A DNA stretch of 64,000 nt from a virus, in the IMG/VR virus record IMGVR_UViG_3300013132_000040, positions 12,318 to 76,317 of that record. One strand, 5' to 3'. The translations under genes were made by a program, and so were the position numbers. The notes under the pieces were generated by a model. It was not told the origin of the DNA. It worked only from the letters and a program-made list of their open reading frames with translations, and searched no databases. Below are positions 10,201 to 64,000 of this stretch, piece by piece; position 1 is the first letter of the stretch, and each line of letters starts with the position of its first letter.

Positions 10201-13200
10201 ATAGCGCAAGATGGTTACGCAATGGCTTCATCTTGGGCGTTGAAGTATAGATTGCCGTCTGGGCAGTTAGATCAAAGTGGGGTTTTTGACGAAAGGACTG
10301 CAGAAGCGGTAAAAAGTCTAAAAGTCTTAGCTGGATCAAGGTATGCGGACGGTATAGCTGATTCCGACTTTTTTTCTATATTGGGAAGTCAGATTCAATT
10401 CTGGGGTCTGACTACAGATATAAATGAAAATACCAGGAATCCTGGATCTTTTGATACGTCAGAATATAATTACCTAAGATATACAGCATACGCAAATAGG
10501 TATATGGATTTAAAAAATATATCCGACTCATCTACTCTTTACAACTATGTGGAAATGTCAGATTCTAGAAGGCCTGATATTGATCGAATTTCAGATGTGT
10601 TTTTAATCCAATACCCAAAAGTTTATAATTTTGACCATATTTCAGTAACACCATATCTCCTGGGCCAAGGTTCGAATATTAACATAGATTTTGTTGATGT
10701 TAGAAAAACCCGTGTAGATACCACACGTTTTACCGGCGATATGCTCAATAAGGCGTGGCAGTATTTTGAGATTGAAGAAAGAAGTGGCGGTGGGTCTGGG
10801 TGGGTGCCGGATAGTCCTAGGATTTTATGGGGACAAAATCCAGAATACTGGGGCTCCAATAATGTCAAGCAAACTACTTGGGACTACAGATATTGGAATG
10901 GCATTACTAAAACTCCAGTTAGTTACTCTGCATTACCGTTTGTTAGTGTAGAAAATGAAAAAGCATACATACGAATGCTCCAAAGAGCTTTGCAGGTTTA
11001 CCCAGATGGTATTTTTGGTCCTGCTACTGCCGCAGCTGCAAGGCGATGGAAGGTAACAAGGGCATCCCAGTGGGGTATACCGGTCGATAGTAACTGGGGT
11101 TTAATTTCTGCCGTCACCACTATACAGAAACTTCTTGGACTTCCGCAGGATGGTTTTTATGGTCCAGAAACAGAACGTGCCGTAATGAATTGGCAGGCAA
11201 ACTGGAATGGCGCAATGCCCGTAGACGGTTTTTGGGGTCCTATAACTCAAAAGTTTACTGACGAACTTTTTATTTTCTTAGGCGGGACACCAACAGTTGA
11301 AAGAATCCAAAGACATCTTCCTCAACCATATTTTGTATGGCCAGAAAATCTCCTGAGATCATACGATCCCGCCCAGGCCTTAATTCCCAGGGCTAATATA
11401 ACTGCACCAGTTGGTACTAGGACTGATGTTTCTTTGCCTCAAAATACTAGAAGTATTGGAAACACCATTATTGTAGGGGTATCTTCTACTCAAAGAGCTG
11501 GTATCGAGTACGGAAATCAACTTCAGCTTGGCATATCTGATATTACTGGATATGGAAGGGATTATGTTGGTTTCAGAACCCTTTCTGGGGAAGCTGCAGT
11601 TATAGATTATGAGGGTGTTGTAACTAAGGCATTTACGTTTTATGGAGATATTGGTCCTATACAGCTAAACCATAATTACGGGGAAACCGGTGCGCCGGGT
11701 CGATTGACGGATGTGGAGTGGGGAATCGATCCTATATCTGAGGTTTCTACAACAATTTTTCCTGGATTTGATCCTTCTTCTGTTGGTTTGTTTAGGATTG
11801 AAAGTAGTAACCCAAATGTAGAAGCTTTTATAACCCGAAACGGCAAAGTGTATCTTAGGACTAGTGAAGTCATAAATAATAATACATCAAATTACACAGA
11901 GGGCAGATGGTTACCCGGTCCGCCAGATCAGCCGCTCAACGGTAAAGTTTTTGCTATATCCAGTAGGAATCCGGATTCTGTATCCGAAATAGATACTCAA
12001 AAAAATCCAGTTTACGCCATGGACGAAAACGGTAGAATTTTTCCTGGGGTTGAAACAGGTTTTATTAGTAAAGCCGATGGCATAAAGCTTCTTTGTACGT
12101 TAGATGGGAAACCGATTGGAATACCCGTCATGCCTTCGGGTATAGGGGCCGAAGAATACCAAAGACATTACGTAGATATAGAATTAGAATCCTATGCTAC
12201 TTCCCCATTCGTAAATATAGGTTTTTACGATAAAAATCAAAAAGAATTTATTATAAATAAGGATGGTTCATCTAAGTTAAGTTATATAGAATATGTCAAA
12301 AGGGGTCCCCAAAATATATATATTGGCGTTGTTTCATCTGCTGAAGTTGTAGAAAAGAAAAACTTGCCTCAAGTTGTAGATGGATTGAATGAGCTCCCAT
12401 TTAAGTATGTAATGCCTGTTTACGGTTTGGTTTCAAAGACAAAAACCAAAATAGGTATTGAACCTATTAACTCTAACCTTGGCGCCACTGACATCTGGGG
12501 TGTGCCTATAAGGGTTGGGTCTTTTAACAGGAATATTAATTTACCGAGTTACTCTTCATCCCCGATTGTGGGTTGGCTATCCAAATACCAGGGTAGAACA
12601 GTACATGCCTTTTACTCGGTCCCTGAAGCTAATTTAAACTCATGGTCATCCATTTTTGGGCGTCCATACATTGACGTGAAGGGTGAGCATCCAAATCTCC
12701 TCCAAGAAGATGTACTTCAGGTGCGTCAGTTTCCGATTCTCTCTGTAACCGAACCAACTCAAAAGCCATCGCTATCCGATCCGGAAAGACCGGTATTAAA
12801 GGTTTGGACTCGTCAGTCAATTGACGATGAATGGACTGAACTAAAACGGTCTGATGTTATAGACTATAACCTCTCAAATGGATTGGTCTACTTACGTACC
12901 CCTTTGCCCCAAAAGGATTCAAATCTCATTAAAGTAGATTACACGACCGTAAGTCGCGTCTACACTGCTAAGTCAGCAAATGGGCAAAAAGTTAATTTAA
13001 ACCCGTATTTAAAAATACGTGAAGACATGATTGGTGTACCGGTGTATGTTTACTTGGTTCCTGAGTATGTAAAAAATGAAGATATGGAAATTATTGACGA
13101 ATCAACAAATTCTTCTACCGTAAAGATTACAACAGATAATTCGGAAATCAACCCTTATGACCCATTTTATAACCCTCTCGCCGTACAGCTTGGTGTAATT

Positions 13201-28297: not shown

Positions 28298-28460
28298 TGT
28301 ACTTGGTTATTTTTTTGCTGCCTTTTTTGCTGTCTGGGGAGTTATCGTAATAGTTAACACCAAAGAAGTAGCTGACACGGTAATGTTGAGGGTAATATCG
28401 TTATTTGTTGCAATATGCATGTTTGCCATGTCTGGAGCGGTATTAAATGCCATTATTTAG
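28290..28460 (+). CDS. Small two-TM membrane protein (56 aa, not in ORF track)
   Basis: MVDVLGYFFAAFFAVWGVIVIV...VISLFVAICMFAMSGAVLNAII; overlaps both neighbours; GGAG SD. Confidence 0.55.
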   Translation: MVDVLGYFFAAFFAVWGVIVIVNTKEVADTVMLRVISLFVAICMFAMSGAVLNAII

Positions 28461-28917
28461 TCGTAAAGACGTTCAGTTTATTAAACTTTGTGAAATTGGT
28501 TCATTTATTTTCTCTACTTGTGGTAAGAAAAAGTATATGGCAATTTTAACAGACGATGATTACCTCGTAGTCGGGTTTGGCTACAACGGTGGTGCACCGG
28601 GTTCTGTCCACTGCGAAGACGGCGGATGCCCAAGGTTGGAACAAGGTTCGGAAAGCGGATCCGTATACGATAACTGTATAGCAGTCCACGCTGAACAAAA
28701 TGCTTTTCTTCATTCGGATTATACTTCAAAACCAACAAAACTTTTTGTCAATGGCCCTCCATGCTTTACGTGTGCTAAAATTATTGTTAATAGTTCTGTA
28801 AAAAAAGTTTTCTATATAAGAGACGAGTCTTACTCGCAATGGGCAGAGATATCAGGTTTTATGAATAGCCATGGTGTAGAGACGCTAGGTTTTGCCAATG
28901 CCGGCCCAAAAAATTAA
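28447..28917 (+). CDS. dCMP deaminase (ComEB-like)
   Basis: GYNG, HAEQNA and PCFTC zinc-deaminase motifs. Confidence 0.9.
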   Translation: MPLFSRKDVQFIKLCEIGSFIFSTCGKKKYMAILTDDDYLVVGFGYNGGAPGSVHCEDGGCPRLEQGSESGSVYDNCIAVHAEQNAFLHSDYTSKPTKLFVNGPPCFTCAKIIVNSSVKKVFYIRDESYSQWAEISGFMNSHGVETLGFANAGPKN

Positions 28918-50657: not shown

Positions 50658-50980
50658 GCTCGTCCCTCATTTTGAGCATCTTTGATGATGCTGTATCGTT
50701 GGAATGTTTCACTTGACGTAATGGCGAAGCCAAATTCTGCCGCTTTTGTTATAGCTTCGCGCAATGAATCGATATTATCCATAGATTCACTCGTAAGTGG
50801 CAAAGCTAACCCCGAGTAGATATCAATATTTTCAAAGTTTCCAATGTTCGCTTTTCGATTGACGCCACAGATAAAGACGGGAACAGTAGTTACAGATAGT
50901 GAAGAGAGCGTTTGTTCTATTGCTTCTTCAACAGCAGAGTTCTGTGTTTGATCTTTACCGTTTTTTGATATATTAGGCAT
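50654..50980 (-). CDS. Hypothetical protein
   Basis: RKANIGNFENIDIY motif; coupled to the kinase gene; AGAG upstream. Confidence 0.65.
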   Translation of the reverse strand: MPNISKNGKDQTQNSAVEEAIEQTLSSLSVTTVPVFICGVNRKANIGNFENIDIYSGLALPLTSESMDNIDSLREAITKAAEFGFAITSSETFQRYSIIKDAQNEGRA

Positions 50981-57968: not shown

Positions 57969-58835
57969 CTATACAAGAGAAAAACTATTCACAATTTTAA
58001 TAGCCATCTCTTTTGAATTCATACCCACCTGCTGTCCTGCCTTCTCAAGAAATAGGTCAAGAGTAGATTTAAAGGTTGGTACAAAATCTTCAGGAAAATC
58101 ACTTCCACGCATATCTGCTTTGGAAGACTTCCATTCAGTTTCTAAAATATCCAAAATAGACATTTTTTCCCAAGAACGAAAATAATTAGCAAGTGTATTG
58201 AGGCTTTTAGATCCAGATGGTGAGCAAGGTATTCCAAACCCCATGCAATGATTAACGCTATCCATCAAATCTAGGTTCCATCCAGAGTTCCAGACCATAT
58301 TGTAGGCATACTGAATGCCTTCGGCAAGATTGCTGCATGGCTCAAAACGCTCAAAAATAGGGTTGCACAGAGTAGAATCTAGATAAAGGTTGAGCAAAGG
58401 TAGCATGTAAACACGGTTTGCCCAATCATTTATTGGTTCATTTCTGCAGAACACCTGAACCATTACCGGATTGAAGAAATCGTCAAACAAAACATAGTAC
58501 ACCGTCCAGGGCATCGGTAGGTGATACGAATTGGTTTCAGTTGACTCGTAAATATCATCGCGACGAGCAAGCGCAATTTCTATGAACTGTACCGTAGGTG
58601 GGCGCTCAAAGACCACTACTCGTTGCGTGCTAGAAATCCATCTTATAGCAGGAGGCAACAATCCTAAATCTTCACGATTGTTATCTTGGATTGCATTGAG
58701 TAGATCATTTGCGTTTTTGCGTTCAAGCCTAATTGATTCGGGGCGGCTTTCAATCATAAACGCGTCATTTCTTGAACTATTGAAAAATCCATCAACAGTG
58801 TTATCAGCGTCATGAATGTTTAATTTGATTATCAT
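57969..58835 (-). CDS. Prokaryotic E2-like (Prok-E2_D/PRTRC-B-like) protein, paralog 2
   Basis: LLPPAIRW, FERPP, LPMPWTVY, YMLPLLNLYLDSTLC, VWNSGWNLDL. Confidence 0.6.
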   Translation of the reverse strand: MIIKLNIHDADNTVDGFFNSSRNDAFMIESRPESIRLERKNANDLLNAIQDNNREDLGLLPPAIRWISSTQRVVVFERPPTVQFIEIALARRDDIYESTETNSYHLPMPWTVYYVLFDDFFNPVMVQVFCRNEPINDWANRVYMLPLLNLYLDSTLCNPIFERFEPCSNLAEGIQYAYNMVWNSGWNLDLMDSVNHCMGFGIPCSPSGSKSLNTLANYFRSWEKMSILDILETEWKSSKADMRGSDFPEDFVPTFKSTLDLFLEKAGQQVGMNSKEMAIKIVNSFSLV

Positions 58836-59740
58836 TATATCACCAAATCTTTGAAGAACTTGCTGATGTTGTTTGATTTATCTTCTTCTGTATTTTTAGG
58901 TTTCTTAGAAATTAATTCGCAGTATTTATCAAATTCCATATAGGGTTGAAAATTTGCTGAAAGAATTTCGTCCATTGACAAACGAGAATAAAGCTCAAGG
59001 TAGCGACGTGTATTGGCAAAATCGCCCAAATCAGGGGCTCCAACGTTGCAAGTCAAATCGTTATTGAAGTTTGAAATCCAAAAAGTATTTATACAACCAA
59101 GTATGTAAGAAGAAAAGTTATTATACTTGTCCGGATGTAGGAGACTATTTCCCCAGCAAACACGATTATCAGCGTAAAGGTTTGGCAGTGGCAGTACGTA
59201 AAGGGCAGAGTTGGCGCTTTGAATTGAAGTTGGTGAGCAGAAAATAGAAGCGTCTCTTACATACCTTGTATTTGAATTTTGGTTTTCAAGTTTAAAGAAC
59301 CATATTGTCCAAGGTATGTTTAAATGAAATTCAAATGAGTGATATTCTAATTGTTCTGCTTCAAATCCGCAATCACAACCATATTCTGGATCGCAAGATT
59401 CGCACCGATTATAATCATCTATCTCATTAATCGGTCCTTCTTCGAAATGGATATCGTCATATGTAATTGTTACGCTAAACGGAGGCCGTTCTACGGCAAT
59501 CTGTTCCATGTCTTTCGATACCCACCTAGTTACGGGTGGCAGGATATCGGTATCCATTTTTGACTTACTAAAAAAGTTTTTTGATACTTGTTGAACGTCA
59601 TATGTTGAAACTTCGAAGATGCCATACTCAAATTTGTAGCCATTATCAGAAAGCGTGACTGTTTGCTTAATTGTGTCTACTGGTATGGGAGATTGTGTTG
59701 GTGTTTCTGTGTCACTTACTAGTTCAGATGTTTGCGACAT
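58835..59740 (-). CDS. Prokaryotic E2-like (Prok-E2_D/PRTRC-B-like) protein, paralog 1
   Basis: ILPPVTRW, VERPP, LNIPWTIW, LYVLPLPNLYADNRVCWG, FWISNFNNDL; probable ATG at 59740. Confidence 0.68.
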   Translation of the reverse strand: MSQTSELVSDTETPTQSPIPVDTIKQTVTLSDNGYKFEYGIFEVSTYDVQQVSKNFFSKSKMDTDILPPVTRWVSKDMEQIAVERPPFSVTITYDDIHFEEGPINEIDDYNRCESCDPEYGCDCGFEAEQLEYHSFEFHLNIPWTIWFFKLENQNSNTRYVRDASIFCSPTSIQSANSALYVLPLPNLYADNRVCWGNSLLHPDKYNNFSSYILGCINTFWISNFNNDLTCNVGAPDLGDFANTRRYLELYSRLSMDEILSANFQPYMEFDKYCELISKKPKNTEEDKSNNISKFFKDLVI

Positions 59741-60758
59741 GTTGGGTGTAAACCTTGTCTTTAGGTGGTTGTAGGTTGTTTTCGACAAGATGTGGGGTAA
59801 GTTCCCCAATTTGGTCGGAGAAAGAATCAATCAGTGTTGAAAATGTTGCTTCAGGATTCTGCTGATTATATTCCTCCATACCAATTACTTCTTGTGTTTC
59901 TGTGTTTATAATGCGCCAATTTAATTGGCCAAAGTTATAACGCCTTGATTGAACTACAATATTTTTTTCGTTAGTCAAAAACCTTGTTTCCCATGGACTT
60001 TCACTGTACATCGGGCAGTGCACGGATTGGCCAAAGTTCTTGTCGTAAGTGCAAAGTGGATTGGAATTACTCGAGTTTTTTGCTAGCAACTCGTTTGAAC
60101 AGGACGCTCTGTATTTTGAGGGTCGATCAAATTTGTAGTGTGGCGAAGGTTCGAATCTTACGGTGTTTTCTTTCGCGGTGTAGAAAACGCATGTAGGAAT
60201 TTTGTTGGTATCATATTGCACTTCACACACTTCGCGCAACTTGAAAGAGTTTACGTCTAACAAACTAAAGTATTCAAAGATGTGTTTCTTGTTGATTCTT
60301 TCTATTTGAAGGCCTTCTGGAATTTTGACATCAACAAGAATCTTCGTATGATTTTCATCCCATTCGCAAAATACTCCAGACTCTTGTGATGGGATATTGT
60401 GGGTGAAGGAAACTTCCACAATTTCTTCAAACGGCGCAACATTTTGATTTGGCGGACCATCGGTGTCTTTCACGTTGATGAAAAGCCCGGTGTTATCAAC
60501 GTAGTATTGTTCGCCGTCTGGTCCATTTACGATCTGATATCCCCCGTTATTGCCTAGCGAAACAACCGGGCTAGGAGCCCCAGTGGGACCGTTGGCCCCC
60601 ATAAAGCCTTGTGGGATCGCGCTTAGAACAACGTTATCAAGCGACGCTTGGTCAAGGTTTAGTGGTTCAAGTAGCTTTTCCAGAGAGAATTTTAGGTTAA
60701 GAAAACCATCTTCCGGAGAAGGTTCTTGTTTTTTGGTAAAACTATCTATAATGTCCAT
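59724..60758 (-). CDS. Hypothetical protein
   Basis: 344-aa ORF with several Cys and a short GxxGxxG stretch. Confidence 0.65.
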   Translation of the reverse strand: MDIIDSFTKKQEPSPEDGFLNLKFSLEKLLEPLNLDQASLDNVVLSAIPQGFMGANGPTGAPSPVVSLGNNGGYQIVNGPDGEQYYVDNTGLFINVKDTDGPPNQNVAPFEEIVEVSFTHNIPSQESGVFCEWDENHTKILVDVKIPEGLQIERINKKHIFEYFSLLDVNSFKLREVCEVQYDTNKIPTCVFYTAKENTVRFEPSPHYKFDRPSKYRASCSNELLAKNSSNSNPLCTYDKNFGQSVHCPMYSESPWETRFLTNEKNIVVQSRRYNFGQLNWRIINTETQEVIGMEEYNQQNPEATFSTLIDSFSDQIGELTPHLVENNLQPPKDKVYTQHVANI

Positions 60759-60792: not shown

Positions 60793-61353
60793 TTACGACC
60801 AGGTAAGGCCAGCTCTGCCAGCTAAAATTGCGTCTTTGTCTTTTGACGCAGTCTGTATCGTTTCTAGGTTTGATTCAAGTAGCAATACTTTGTTTTTTAG
60901 CGCTGAAATTTCGCGCACGTAGCTTCGCTCATTGTGTTCATTAATGCCTATTTCAGACGACGAAATTTTTTTTCTTGAGAGGATTATGTATCCGTCGTCG
61001 TTGATGCCTGTGTGTTTGATGTTGTAGATTCGTTCGTATGTTTTGAGTGTTTGTTCTGCGTTTTTGATGTCGTGGAGGTTGTAGTGTTTTAGTTCTGTTA
61101 TTGTTGCGTTTTCGAGTAGTTTTGTGATGTTTAATGTTTTTACTAGTCCGTTGATTGTTGTGGTGCCGTAGTGGATTTTTGTGTGGTTGGCTAGTGTTTG
61201 TTCGATTTGGGTGGTGTTGGTTGTGTTGAAGTATTCTTCTAGCCATAGTGATTCTTGGGTCATTATGTCTAGGATGGCGTTGGCTAGGAGTAGCCGTGAT
61301 TTTGCGCGGCTTTGTTCGATGTGGTTGTCGAACGGGTTTTTGTATGTGTCCAT
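60793..61353 (-). CDS. Hypothetical protein (N-terminal two-thirds lies in the skewed island)
   Basis: GAGG SD; C-terminal coiled coil. Confidence 0.65.
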   Translation of the reverse strand: MDTYKNPFDNHIEQSRAKSRLLLANAILDIMTQESLWLEEYFNTTNTTQIEQTLANHTKIHYGTTTINGLVKTLNITKLLENATITELKHYNLHDIKNAEQTLKTYERIYNIKHTGINDDGYIILSRKKISSSEIGINEHNERSYVREISALKNKVLLLESNLETIQTASKDKDAILAGRAGLTWS

Positions 61354-61361
61354 GTTGGCCT

Positions 61362-61637
61362 CTATGTTTGGATTTTTATGTCGTGTATTTCGACATGGTT
61401 TTGTTCTACTAGTTGGTAGATGTCGCCTTGGAGGATTATGAGTGAGGCGAGTTGTGGAAACATTTTTTTGGCGATGGTGTAGGCGTTGGTGAGTAGTTCG
61501 AGGCTGGTGTAGATTGGGTGGTTTTTGTCGTCGACTACTAGTAGGCCTATGTTGTTTTCAGTTATGTAAAGGTTCGTTGTTTGGAGCCATGTTTTCCATG
61601 GGTTGTTCAGTGCTTGTATCTCTGTTTTCCAAGACAT
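61362..61637 (-). CDS. Hypothetical protein
   Basis: ORF with normal hydrophobic patterning, in operon order. Confidence 0.55.
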   Translation of the reverse strand: MSWKTEIQALNNPWKTWLQTTNLYITENNIGLLVVDDKNHPIYTSLELLTNAYTIAKKMFPQLASLIILQGDIYQLVEQNHVEIHDIKIQT

Positions 61638-61932
61638 CTGATGTGTACTCCAGTGTTTCTAGCATGAGGTCTCTTGTTGCTAGTACTTTGTTTTTGAAGG
61701 CTTGTTGTTTTTCTTCGGTTTCGTATTCTAGTTGGGCGATGAGGGCTTCTACTAGGACGGCTTGTTCTGCGAAACCTACCGTGATTGTTGCTACTTGTTG
61801 TTCTATGGCGTCTAGTTTTTTTTCGAAGAGTTGGAGTTCTTCTTGAAAAAATCTTTGGTGTGACTTTAGGGCTTGGTCTACTTTGGAGTAGTAGAGTTCT
61901 AGGTCTGCCTGTGTTGTGGGTTGGTCTTTCAT
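61558..61932 (-). CDS. Coiled-coil hypothetical protein
   Basis: Probable ATG at 61932 (ATGA-coupled); LELYYSKVDQALK... heptads. Confidence 0.6.
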   Translation of the reverse strand: MKDQPTTQADLELYYSKVDQALKSHQRFFQEELQLFEKKLDAIEQQVATITVGFAEQAVLVEALIAQLEYETEEKQQAFKNKVLATRDLMLETLEYTSDVLENRDTSTEQPMENMAPNNEPLHN

Positions 61933-62534
61933 TTGTCTGTGTACCAGTCTGGGTTTTGATTGGCATGTGTGTGTAGGCAGAGGTTGATGCGGTAGCTTAT
62001 TTCTGCTAGTTCTACTCTGGTGACTTTGATTGAGTCTGTTGAGAGCGGGCTTGACATGTCTGGGAGGAATGCGCCGGATGATGATTTGTTGGCTTTGAAG
62101 TGGCCGCATTTGAACACGAAGGCTGTTTGGTCGTATTCTCCTTCGCCTTTGCGCCAGTAGTGTGATTTGAATATGCGCGATATTGGTTTGTTGTCTGGTC
62201 CTGTTCCTCCGCCGTAGAATGCTATGCCTTCTTCGGTGGGTACACCCATTTTGGGGTTTGGGGTGTAGATGTTTTTTGCGGTGCCGTTTGTTACTGCTTG
62301 TAGGTAGACTGCGAATAGGATTGAGTCGACGAAGGTTTCTGTGTGTGATTTGAGTTTTGCGTCTGCGCCGGTTGCGCCTATGTCTATGCGGAATTTCCCT
62401 ATGTTGAGTAGGGGTTTGATGGAGAGGAATCCGCTGGCTGACGGTGATTTAAACCATTTTTTGTAGAGGTCTGGTGTTATGGTTTTGCCGTCTTCGGGTA
62501 GTATGATTGTGTCTTCGTCGAGGTTTAGGTCCAT
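61929..62534 (-). CDS. Hypothetical protein
   Basis: Probable ATG at 62534, just after the AAA stop codon; globular composition. Confidence 0.65.
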   Translation of the reverse strand: MDLNLDEDTIILPEDGKTITPDLYKKWFKSPSASGFLSIKPLLNIGKFRIDIGATGADAKLKSHTETFVDSILFAVYLQAVTNGTAKNIYTPNPKMGVPTEEGIAFYGGGTGPDNKPISRIFKSHYWRKGEGEYDQTAFVFKCGHFKANKSSSGAFLPDMSSPLSTDSIKVTRVELAEISYRINLCLHTHANQNPDWYTDK

Positions 62535-62542
62535 TGTTTGCC

Positions 62543-64000
62543 TTAGAATTTTGTCATTACTGTTTGTCGTGTTTTTGGTTTGGTGACGCCCAATATTTTT
62601 TGTGCGTCTTGTAGTTGGGCTGAGCTGGCCCAGTCCCATTCTGCTACGGCGCGTTGGTACATGTCTACTACTGTTGAGCGGTGTTTGATCCACATACGGT
62701 TTTGTTGTGTGGGGATCAGGGTTTCTAGGTCTTGTTGTTGTATTTTGCGTTTGTCTTTTACGGAAATTTTGAATCGCGCTTCGCGGATGACTGCTTTGAT
62801 TTCTGCGCCGGTGAATGTGTCTGTCATTTCGGCTAGTGTTTCGAGGTTGAATTGTTCGGCGTCTTTTCCTAGGTGGATTTTGAAAATTCCGATGCGCTCT
62901 TCGAGCGATGGTAGTCCGACGAACATGATTTTGTCGAAACGGTCTGCGCGTAGCATTTCTGGACTGATGTGTCCTATTTGGTTTGCTGCGGCCATCAGCA
63001 GTACGTTGTCTGGTAGTTCCTGGATGCCTGTGAGGAATTCTCCGTGGACGCGTGACGTTGTGCCGCCGTCCCCTTGGTAGTCGCCTACTGATAGGTCTCT
63101 ACCTAGCTCGTCCATCCAGACTACTAGAGGGGCCATGGCCCTTAGTTGCGCGAATGCTGATCGCATGCGTTTTTCTGACTCGCCGATGAATTTGTCCATC
63201 ATTTGGCTGACGCCGAATTTGGCGAGGTCAAGATCAAGCGAGCTTGCTGTTGCTTCGCATATTGCGGATTTGCCTGTGCCGGGTACGCCGACGAATAGTA
63301 CGCGTCGGAGCGGTATGATGTCGAGTTCGGCTGCTTGTCCTGGGTTGTTCCAGGTCCACACAACGTTTTCGATAAGTTCTTTGGCGAGGTCCAAGCCGCC
63401 GATTTGATCCAGAGAAATTGTTGGCCGGCGAATTTCCAGGATGCCACCCTGCTTAACTCGATCCATCTTCCACTTTGCGATATAGTTGGGGTCGATGGTT
63501 TGGTTTTCGCTTAAACTGAGTAGTGTGACTTGAATAAACTCTTGTTCCGATAGACCAAGGCCGGCTTTCACAACCTTGTTCATGTCTGTGGAAGAGTTTA
63601 CGATGTTGTCATCTTTGCCGAAAATTTCGGCGCAAAGATAACTGAGGTCAACTTCGCTTGGGTAACCGGGGTTGACTGACACAAAGTGGTGTGACAGTTC
63701 TTTAGGGATTTCATCTGTGCATGAAAGGGCAACGAATTGTGGTCCAATCATGTCGGTGTTGTTGTGCAGGACTGCTTTGCGGTATTTGGAGTAGATACCG
63801 ATGAACAATCCCATAAGATCTTCTGCTACCAAATGAGCATTTTGTAGAATGAAGCATCCGTTGTTTTCGATGGCGTGATGGATTGCTTGCTCTAAATTGT
63901 AGCATTGTACTTCTCGTATATCATCGGTTTCTTGTGAACCGATTTCTACGAGTACTATCTTCCATTCGTTGTTTCGCCAAACCATTAGGCCATCGAAACC
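62543..64000 (-). CDS. AAA+ ATPase (Ycf46/SpoVK-like), 5' truncated
   Basis: IGGLDLAK, Walker A GVPGTGKS, KFIGESE, Walker B VWMDE, AAAN, PEMLRADRFD, FTGAEI; frame is open to the window edge. Confidence 0.9.
   Translation of the reverse strand, partial: GFDGLMVWRNNEWKIVLVEIGSQETDDIREVQCYNLEQAIHHAIENNGCFILQNAHLVAEDLMGLFIGIYSKYRKAVLHNNTDMIGPQFVALSCTDEIPKELSHHFVSVNPGYPSEVDLSYLCAEIFGKDDNIVNSSTDMNKVVKAGLGLSEQEFIQVTLLSLSENQTIDPNYIAKWKMDRVKQGGILEIRRPTISLDQIGGLDLAKELIENVVWTWNNPGQAAELDIIPLRRVLFVGVPGTGKSAICEATASSLDLDLAKFGVSQMMDKFIGESEKRMRSAFAQLRAMAPLVVWMDELGRDLSVGDYQGDGGTTSRVHGEFLTGIQELPDNVLLMAAANQIGHISPEMLRADRFDKIMFVGLPSLEERIGIFKIHLGKDAEQFNLETLAEMTDTFTGAEIKAVIREARFKISVKDKRKIQQQDLETLIPTQQNRMWIKHRSTVVDMYQRAVAEWDWASSAQLQDAQKILGVTKPKTRQTVMTKF

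Follow-up and report, generated by a model that had tools for sequence, protein, structure and literature searches.

The 64,000-nucleotide window analyzed here (positions 12,318 to 76,317 of the IMG/VR virus record IMGVR_UViG_3300013132_000040) contains, near its right end, a 3-kb island in which the synonymous sites of five genes encoded on the - strand are almost purged of G and T, leaving the + strand G/T-rich. This tract is real, extreme, conserved and actively maintained. From its sequence and that of its relatives, we consider it modestly probable that the tract is the footprint of a recurrent DNA transaction that is tied to one sharp border, here called the cliff, and that proceeds rightwards, the + strand being newly synthesized or exposed. 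The parts of the tract, in window coordinates, are as follows.

60966 to 63100, core of the tract: G/T-rich + strand, A/C-rich coding (-) strand, synonymous sites almost purged of G and T
60955 to 60975, cliff: between codon 129 (AAA, 60969-60967) and codon 130 (ATT, 60966-60964) of a gene for a 186-aa protein
63101 to 64000, fading part: 65-75% A or C at third codon positions (AC3) versus a baseline of ~50%, with a down-step near 63300

The initial annotation of this DNA had described an extreme G/T skew of the + strand, and its G+T counts of 49/60, 46/60 and 25/60 are all exact on recount. Over 60975-63100 (2126 nt), + strand G+T is 0.697, compared with 0.518 (standard deviation (s.d.) 0.014, maximum 0.555) in other segments of the same length from the 76-kb contig. 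The source of the bias is the third positions of five intact - strand genes: A or C ends 636 of 703 codons in the tract versus 737 of 1490 (49.5%) in neighboring - strand genes (binomial p ~1e-119). At fourfold sites, the sense-strand frequencies of A/C/G/T are.54/.38/.058/.023 in the tract versus.33/.165/.14/.36 in other - strand genes, and at twofold sites both C/(C+T) and A/(A+G) reach.95, compared with 40% C and 69% A. Leucine moves from TTR to CTR codons (TTR 2/70 in the tract versus 50/125), and ATT accounts for only 2 of the 57 isoleucine codons. In other words, codon families collapse by nucleotide, purines to A and pyrimidines to C, in all families and with CTA and ATA included. AC3 is.85-.96 in the tract genes, and the corresponding share at second positions (AC2) is unchanged. 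Nowhere else on the contig do GC and TA skews have the same sign and both exceed 0.15 over at least 400 nt; in 150-nt steps, the tract means are 0.32 for GC skew and 0.46 for TA skew, the two are correlated with r = 0.23 inside the tract and -0.04 elsewhere, and the sign is constant throughout.

The collapse has some visible by-products. The tetranucleotide CTAG occurs 17 times in 60966-63100, where 5.8 occurrences are expected (observed/expected ratio 2.9;.71 in the rest of the contig), and TCGA 13 times, again with 5.8 expected (2.2;.65 in the rest of the contig). This pile-up arises because A/C-ending codons adjoin G/T-starting ones, and it is the expected product of a blind third-position collapse. 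Since depletion of T removes stop codons, long shadow open reading frames (ORFs) appear in the other - strand frames of 60953-62693: frames of 97 aa and 119 aa and extensions of 183 aa and 254 aa, the last of which begins inside the AAA gene described below. The G and T that are left in the tract cluster weakly with other keto bases, in a manner indistinguishable from regional heterogeneity when neighboring-base context is considered. Rfam gave no match over the tract at E values up to 0.1, and the only tandem repeats are trivial ones.

Five genes, all on the - strand, are touched by the tract, and they differ in how strongly their proteins are constrained.

62543 to 64000, - strand, AAA+ ATPase gene (PF00004 plus AAA_lid_3), 5' end lost at the contig end
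61929 to 62534, - strand, conserved gene for a 201-aa protein, AC3 0.93
61558 to 61932, - strand, gene for a 124-aa protein, with an ATGA start overlapping the preceding stop and orthologues in related loci L001-L003
61362 to 61637, - strand, gene for a 91-aa protein, with an 80-nt overlap with the 124-aa gene
60793 to 61353, - strand, fast-evolving gene for a 186-aa protein, 19-27% identical to its orthologues

For the AAA and 201-aa proteins, which are conserved, the third codon positions alone are shifted (z = 4 to 8) and the second positions are unmoved. In the weakly conserved small proteins, first positions move as well, with an A/C share (AC1) of.56-.61 versus.488 (s.d..018) in 87 outgroup loci (z = 4 to 7). 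The enrichment in Thr, Asn, Lys and His that the initial annotation ascribed to the encoded proteins in general therefore holds for the small, weakly conserved ones, in which it follows from the shift of first positions, and fails for the AAA and 201-aa proteins. The pressure behaves as one at the nucleotide level that is filtered by protein constraint, and is not an adaptation to tRNAs. A strand-specific transition bias, with C to T and A to G on the + strand, fits the movement of purines to A and pyrimidines to C at synonymous sites of the coding strand. The two components are unequal: in the window, the T/C odds are shifted 28-fold (+ strand A to G) versus 6-9-fold for the G/A odds (+ strand C to T), and A to G exceeds C to T in effect by a factor of 1.5-5 in all three known carriers of the tract, i.e. 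the window and two relatives introduced below. Sense transcription is known to produce an asymmetry of its own, making the coding strand G/T-rich; because the coding strand here is A/C-rich, which is the opposite polarity, sense transcription is excluded as the cause.

What does the tract look like along the DNA? Its left border is a maximum-likelihood change point at 60966, where G+T rises from 0.55 to 0.77, in agreement with an earlier placement of an abrupt border at about 60960 within ORF 60793-61353. The first 129 codons of the 186-aa gene lie within the tract and the last 57 outside; 92 consecutive codons (38-129) end in A or C, and the bias then ends within one codon, on an A8T3 run that opens the conserved K-I-S block of the peptide K-I-S-x-x-E-I-G. 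We expressed the profile as the keto share, that is, the fraction of G or T among synonymous third positions, binned by distance from the cliff and with pyrimidine- and purine-ending sites taken separately. Just outside the cliff this share is.60 at pyrimidine-ending and.30 at purine-ending sites; in the first 300 nt inside, it is 0/46 and 0/49; up to 1.8 kb from the cliff it is 4-16%; and at 2.4-3.0 kb, where the contig ends, it is.3-.4. Within the AAA gene, where the skew fades as had been noticed initially, it is strongest over the 3' 300 codons; AC3 steps down near 63300, yet it stays at 65-75% to the contig end, and the fading part probably extends past that end. Both edges fall inside genes, and five genes are crossed, such that the skew tracks position and not genes, again as first proposed. 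A codon-sharp edge combined with a decay over kilobases is what a process with one fixed and one variable end should leave behind. A promoter and terminator scan at the cliff returned neither.

These borders are not products of assembly. Unitigs from two other, independent lake-water samples are 100% identical to the region and span both tract borders, which excludes an assembly join. The window makes up the last 64 kb of a single virus contig of 76,317 bp, for which CheckV estimates a completeness of 36%. The AAA ATPase gene at the right contig end is without ~45 N-terminal codons that are present in relatives, the two ends of the contig do not join, and contigs of relatives from lake water are 160-195 kb long; the contig covers only part of a genome of roughly 190 kb. 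The - strand gene block begins near window position 50,900, and the tract is 10-12 kb from this strand switch; in a 190-kb relative, G001, the tract is likewise 10-12 kb from a strand switch, and it occupies 115-118.5 kb, in mid-contig. Because the contig is a fragment, with the AAA gene cut by its end, and because the tract of G001 lies in mid-contig, we reject the earlier idea that the tract is a terminal segment.

The relatives also speak to how the tract persists. Searches with the AAA protein and the 201-aa protein gathered ~100 loci with the same gene order, among which only two carry the tract: L001 (= L023 = G002) and L002 (= L022 = G001). Both are metagenomic phages, and their AAA and 201-aa proteins are 74-78% identical to those of the window. 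The cliff recurs at ~9062 in L001 and ~9032 in L002, within ~7 codons of the homologous K-I-S-x-x-E-I-G block; both profiles have the window's shape but are weaker, and in L001 the keto share is.02/.03 beside the cliff and returns to baseline at 3.3 kb, and in L002 it is.31/.05 beside the cliff and returns to baseline at 2.7 kb. AC3 of the 201-aa gene in the three carriers is.93,.87 and.76. The next relative (60% identity) and all remaining loci are without the tract, and no third-position tract exists in any part of four whole outgroup genomes, whose local G+T maxima are driven by amino acids and not by third positions. Scans of IMG/VR and GTDB with a profile of the carrier clade yielded no further carriers, and a blastn search of the region against a phage collection gave no match; 14 further protein clusters are 70-80% identical to the 201-aa protein. 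As the gene order is identical in relatives that lack the skew, the tract is not a transferred cassette, a point on which the initial annotation was right. That annotation had also reasoned that the same bias in orthologues located elsewhere in a genome would count against a positional cause; two sets of orthologues are indeed biased, but they occupy the same syntenic place, and a positional cause is not refuted.

The three carriers are about equidistant from each other and saturated at fourfold sites, with flanking substitution matrices that are near random, and within the tract the use of A versus C is ~84% randomized between carriers. Because the carriers are saturated yet still skewed, sequence comparison identifies the skew not as a decaying relic but as one that is renewed in each lineage with a lineage-specific strength. 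The same saturation renders a transition/transversion test at fourfold sites between carriers uninformative.

Our preferred reading is that a DNA transaction would start, or always end, at window position 60966 inside the 186-aa gene and would extend rightwards on the + strand, against gene direction, over a variable distance of 2.5 to >3 kb. Within this reach, the + strand would keep gaining G from A and, to a lesser degree, T from C, and purifying selection would confine the visible bias to synonymous sites and weakly constrained residues. What the sequences show is the tract's shape and polarity, its upkeep in three lineages and its absence from the other relatives; a DNA transaction that starts at the cliff, its direction and every enzymatic detail are what we infer from this pattern. 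As for the molecular mechanism, our tentative choice, one that we would not call likely by itself, is by analogy that + strand DNA synthesis is initiated at the cliff, either from a one-directional replication origin or as repair- or recombination-dependent synthesis. In the first kilobases, errors might escape effective correction, either during synthesis or afterwards; G.T mispairs, arising from dGTP opposite T more often than from dTTP opposite G, would give A to G and C to T changes on the nascent strand; and the effect could decay as the replicative DnaE polymerase takes over. The mispair that polymerases make most often is dGTP opposite T, and a nascent + strand would therefore fit the stronger A to G effect. 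The same geometry would also arise from damage to a displaced + strand (deamination, possibly enzymatic) or from strand-biased mismatch repair in heteroduplex formed from a fixed break.

A number of points weigh against this reading. The bias that it needs is large, as the 28-fold and 6-9-fold odds shifts indicate. In five phage records searched, there is no family-A polymerase (PF00476) and no Prim-Pol (PF09250), and a low-fidelity initiator would have to be a host protein or an unrecognized one. A start that fires head-on into early genes is unusual. Shared iterons or inverted repeats at the cliff are absent across the three carrier genomes, no origin-, nick- or promoter-like element common to the carriers was found there, and the synonymous sites of the conserved K-I-S block are not conserved. 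Shape alone cannot separate a fixed start and variable end from a variable start and fixed end, and the four sequencing runs listed as containing the phage, none of them RNA, were used as assembled contigs. Finally, when non-synonymous changes in the conserved proteins are polarized with outgroups, no clear directional excess is seen; we grade this result as neutral rather than contrary, because none is expected at stationarity.

One further feature may bear on the alternatives.

60325 to 60352, + strand, sigma-70-like promoter match (TTGACA-16-TATGAT, 11/12 consensus match)

This match is antisense within a gene for a 344-aa protein, ~600 nt before the cliff and aimed at the tract; it is a consensus match only, in a gene that is ~26% identical to its counterparts in relatives.

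How do the alternatives compare? The initial annotation proposed a + strand that is persistently single-stranded (in a D-loop, an antisense R-loop, a gap or at a strand-displacement start) and is deaminated (C to U, A to hypoxanthine) in the manner of the mitochondrial H-strand. This idea is a sub-variant of the reading preferred here, and we regard it as rather unlikely. Its geometry and polarity fit, with the + strand as the strand displaced from the cliff; the near-consensus + strand promoter match points toward the tract; single-stranded DNA (ssDNA)-handling proteins, namely SSB, UDG-family and Whirly-fold proteins are encoded nearby; and CDA-fold deaminase genes exist in this phage group. 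However, spontaneous deamination of the mitochondrial kind predicts C to T to be at least as strong as A to G, and the order of effects in all carriers is the reverse, a discrepancy that efficient uracil repair could explain away. Moreover, the skew begins 600 nt downstream of the promoter match and not at it, the + strand of the tract is T-rich rather than G-clustered and has no G-quadruplex motifs, deaminase genes occur also in relatives without the tract, and ssDNA does not last long during a lytic cycle. Selection acting on the sequence, also raised initially, is in our view unlikely, whether for an A/C-rich sense mRNA with little folding or with resistance to a U/G-specific RNase or, in a DNA form that we weigh jointly with it, for palindrome-poor, hairpin-free DNA or a G/T-rich platform for a binding protein (the Whirly-fold protein or a recombinase). 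Upkeep in three lineages at equilibrium would be expected from selection too; predicted sense-RNA structure is weakest beside the cliff (-0.085 versus ~-0.2 kcal/mol per nt); palindromes are reduced (88 of 4 bp versus 125 expected, s.d. 12; 17 of 6 bp versus 32 expected, s.d. 5); and an ssDNA/RNA-binding fold is encoded within the tract. The benefit would nonetheless be small: over most of the tract RNA structure is only ~30% weaker, six-base palindromes are only halved, with 17 left, and CTAG and TCGA show a 2-3 fold excess. In L002 the tract is weak (AC3 ~.7) and would bring almost no benefit, and yet it is kept; judging from fourfold-site composition, selection on each of the synonymous sites would need a 4Nes of ~2-3; neither a terminator nor a known RNA lies at the cliff; and relatives encode the same proteins without the tract. 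A codon-sharp cliff and a 3-kb ramp, both of which ignore genes and transcripts, are hard to derive from a bulk property, and the retention of cliff and ramp in three lineages is better fitted by a process with a fixed start than by selection.

Recombination-linked recoding of the type seen in GRINS, which are repeats with intense nucleotide skews, could act through biased conversion, heteroduplex repair from a fixed break or exchange between copies, and overlaps in part with a sub-variant of the preferred reading. The skew is of the same kind, being intense, of the same sign for GC and TA, centered on third positions, abrupt, and rich in Thr/His/Gln/Pro-type codons (PMC8256042), and heteroduplex tracts from a fixed end would also yield a cliff and a ramp. 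We nevertheless find this explanation quite improbable, as neither the 76-kb contig nor the 190-kb relative has a second copy or paralogue, in DNA or protein, the far side of the cliff has no mirror-image tract, similarity does not jump at the cliff, and the N- and C-terminal parts of the AAA gene diverge in the usual ratio with no sign of recent exchange. A horizontally acquired segment, a relic left by one past hypermutation event, or codon usage adapted gene by gene to a tRNA pool would each account for a composition that is atypical of the genome, but taken together we judge them very improbable. There is no donor-like lineage among the ~100 loci; a relic would have decayed at synonymous sites that are saturated between three carriers; and edges that lie inside genes, one of them a ramp, suit neither transfer nor codon adaptation. 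A genomic island is ruled out by genes that are orthologous and in the same order in ~100 relatives, together with these intragenic edges. Translational codon adaptation is ruled out by a bias that switches inside two genes and moves all families to A/C endings by nucleotide and not by tRNA; among the preferred codons are CTA and ATA, both usually rare in bacteria.

Several observations on the surroundings of the tract deserve mention. The phage has genes for a ribonucleotide reductase, a DnaE-type polymerase, a primase-like protein, a DnaB-like helicase and large virion proteins on the + strand. The neighborhood of the tract also encodes proteins that handle ssDNA, i.e. SSB, a UDG-family protein and, inside the tract, the 201-aa protein. 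The predicted structure of the latter (pLDDT 88.5) consists of two beta-beta-beta-beta-alpha repeats and matches PBF-2, WHY1, MRP1/2 and PUR-alpha with a Foldseek probability of 1.0, with WHY2 also among the structural matches (MRP1 and MRP2 being trypanosome proteins). From this model, the 201-aa protein is predicted to adopt the Whirly / PUR-alpha / MRP1-2 fold, which is found in proteins that bind single-stranded nucleic acids. It has no Pfam or PHROG match and belongs to at least 41 protein clusters in lake metagenomes. The 124-aa protein, which likewise has no Pfam or PHROG match, appears helical as we judge it from its sequence, and the ESM Atlas held no usable match to the 186-aa protein. 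Upstream of the AAA gene, relatives have JAB-like and ThiF/E1-like genes (L001 622-5851), and in the window two E2-like genes, with a weak Prok-E2_D match, follow downstream (57969-59830); judged by this gene content, the tract is placed within a ubiquitin-like conjugation gene block.

Deaminases are present in this group as well. An ordinary dCMP-deaminase-like gene is found at 28447-28917 of the window, and genes of the dCMP-deaminase family occur in carriers and non-carriers alike. In both carrier relatives, a small (~160 aa) CDA-fold deaminase with intact HAE and PCxxC motifs is encoded ~15 kb upstream of the AAA gene; it is only 30% identical to its positional counterpart in a non-carrier relative (the loci concerned are L108 12627-13109, L153 154-657 and L122 16403-16888, all on the - strand) and is at most a candidate trans-factor for the tract. 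A screen for carrier-specific genes left 82 of the 184 ORFs of the 190-kb relative without outgroup matches, too many to be useful, and ten large ones among them include no nuclease, polymerase or deaminase. Milder skews exist too. In G001 (L109), a second, weaker pair of patches lies at 148.7-156 kb, ~35 kb from the main tract and in a region that the window's contig does not reach: AC3 is.62-.71 in the - strand genes at 148.7-152.4 kb, and three genes at 154.4-155.9 kb have the opposite sign, with an AC3 of.23-.28 (genome mean.477, s.d..058). Loci L066, L067 and L073, which belong to more distant relatives, show a mild, locus-wide excess of A/C on the coding strand (A+C 56-60%) with no island shape, and AC3 of their 201-aa gene is ~.68.

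Should the tract prove to be a mutational footprint, one could read from it the exact point at which a DNA transaction begins, which way it runs and how far it reaches, all in a phage never grown in culture; such information normally calls for nascent-strand or ssDNA mapping. The tract would then also offer a simpler model for the unexplained GRINS, with a single copy, one sign and a defined start. A broader and more doubtful generalization is that some tailed phages carry a natural, site-anchored, one-strand mutator, in which an event of DNA synthesis or strand exposure is triggered at a single exact nucleotide and rewrites the next 3 kb at every free site. If that were true, the cliff would mark a start of replication or of recombination-dependent replication that is readable from sequence in uncultured viruses, and the same process could underlie GRINS. 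There are practical implications as well. Such tracts mislead gene callers, for T-depletion yields shadow ORFs of 97-254 aa in other frames and an automatic caller could choose the wrong frame or start, and they also mislead host prediction from codon usage, detectors of genomic islands and dN/dS estimates.

Among known systems, what does this tract resemble most? A literature search found no paper on such a tract in a phage, and parallels must be sought elsewhere. Mammalian replication origins and transcription starts, and R-loop-prone GC-skewed promoters, show jumps in strand skew that share with the tract a sharp step at a start site followed by decay; those jumps are an order of magnitude weaker, and sense transcription has the wrong polarity in the tract. 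In vertebrate mitochondrial DNA, deamination of the displaced strand creates an asymmetry with a G+T-rich strand and a gradient with distance from the replication start. Fourfold sites are nearly purged of two bases there as well, and the tract has its own gradient in a ramp of 2.7-3.3 kb; however, the mitochondrial asymmetry is genome-wide, with C to T saturating first, whereas the tract is a 3-kb island in which A to G is stronger, and it is this reversed order of the two transition effects that makes the analogy fail. Closer in geometry is the ColE1 origin under an error-prone Pol I, where A to G and C to T are the main changes in the nascent leading strand (Allen et al., NAR 2011; PMC3167613) and mutations decay exponentially from the RNA/DNA switch, with Pol III taking over across at least 1.3 kb (PMC3167613). 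The fixed start, single direction and decay over at least 1 kb all have counterparts in the tract, as does the polarity if the + strand is nascent. Nonetheless, the ColE1 footprint belongs to a laboratory mutator and was measured as mutations, whereas the tract is a natural equilibrium composition, and neither a ColE1-type origin nor a Pol I gene nor a primer promoter was found in the phage.

The nearest published kind is GRINS. These elements are defined as regions of >500 bp with mean absolute GC and TA skews >0.15 and >80% DNA identity to another region of the same cluster or genome; they are repeats that are tied to gene conversion in polyketide synthase genes, they place both signs of skew side by side, and their mechanism is not known (PMC8256042). 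The tract has the length and the skew of such an element (a core of ~2.1 kb, GC skew 0.32, TA skew 0.46), its skews are correlated and centered on third positions (r = 0.23; AC3.85-.96), and it shares with GRINS intense skews of the same sign, intact genes, abrupt edges and altered amino-acid use. The duplication that is part of the definition is missing, as neither non-self blastn matches nor protein paralogues exist in the 76-kb contig or the 190-kb relative. The authors of the GRINS study also mention single-copy skewed regions and the idea of G/T mispairs formed through tautomers (PMC8256042). In contrast to GRINS, the tract is present in a single copy, has one sign, is found in a phage and forms a one-sided cliff and ramp at one orthologous site; it is, in short, a single-copy, one-signed, site-anchored variant of the skew that GRINS display.

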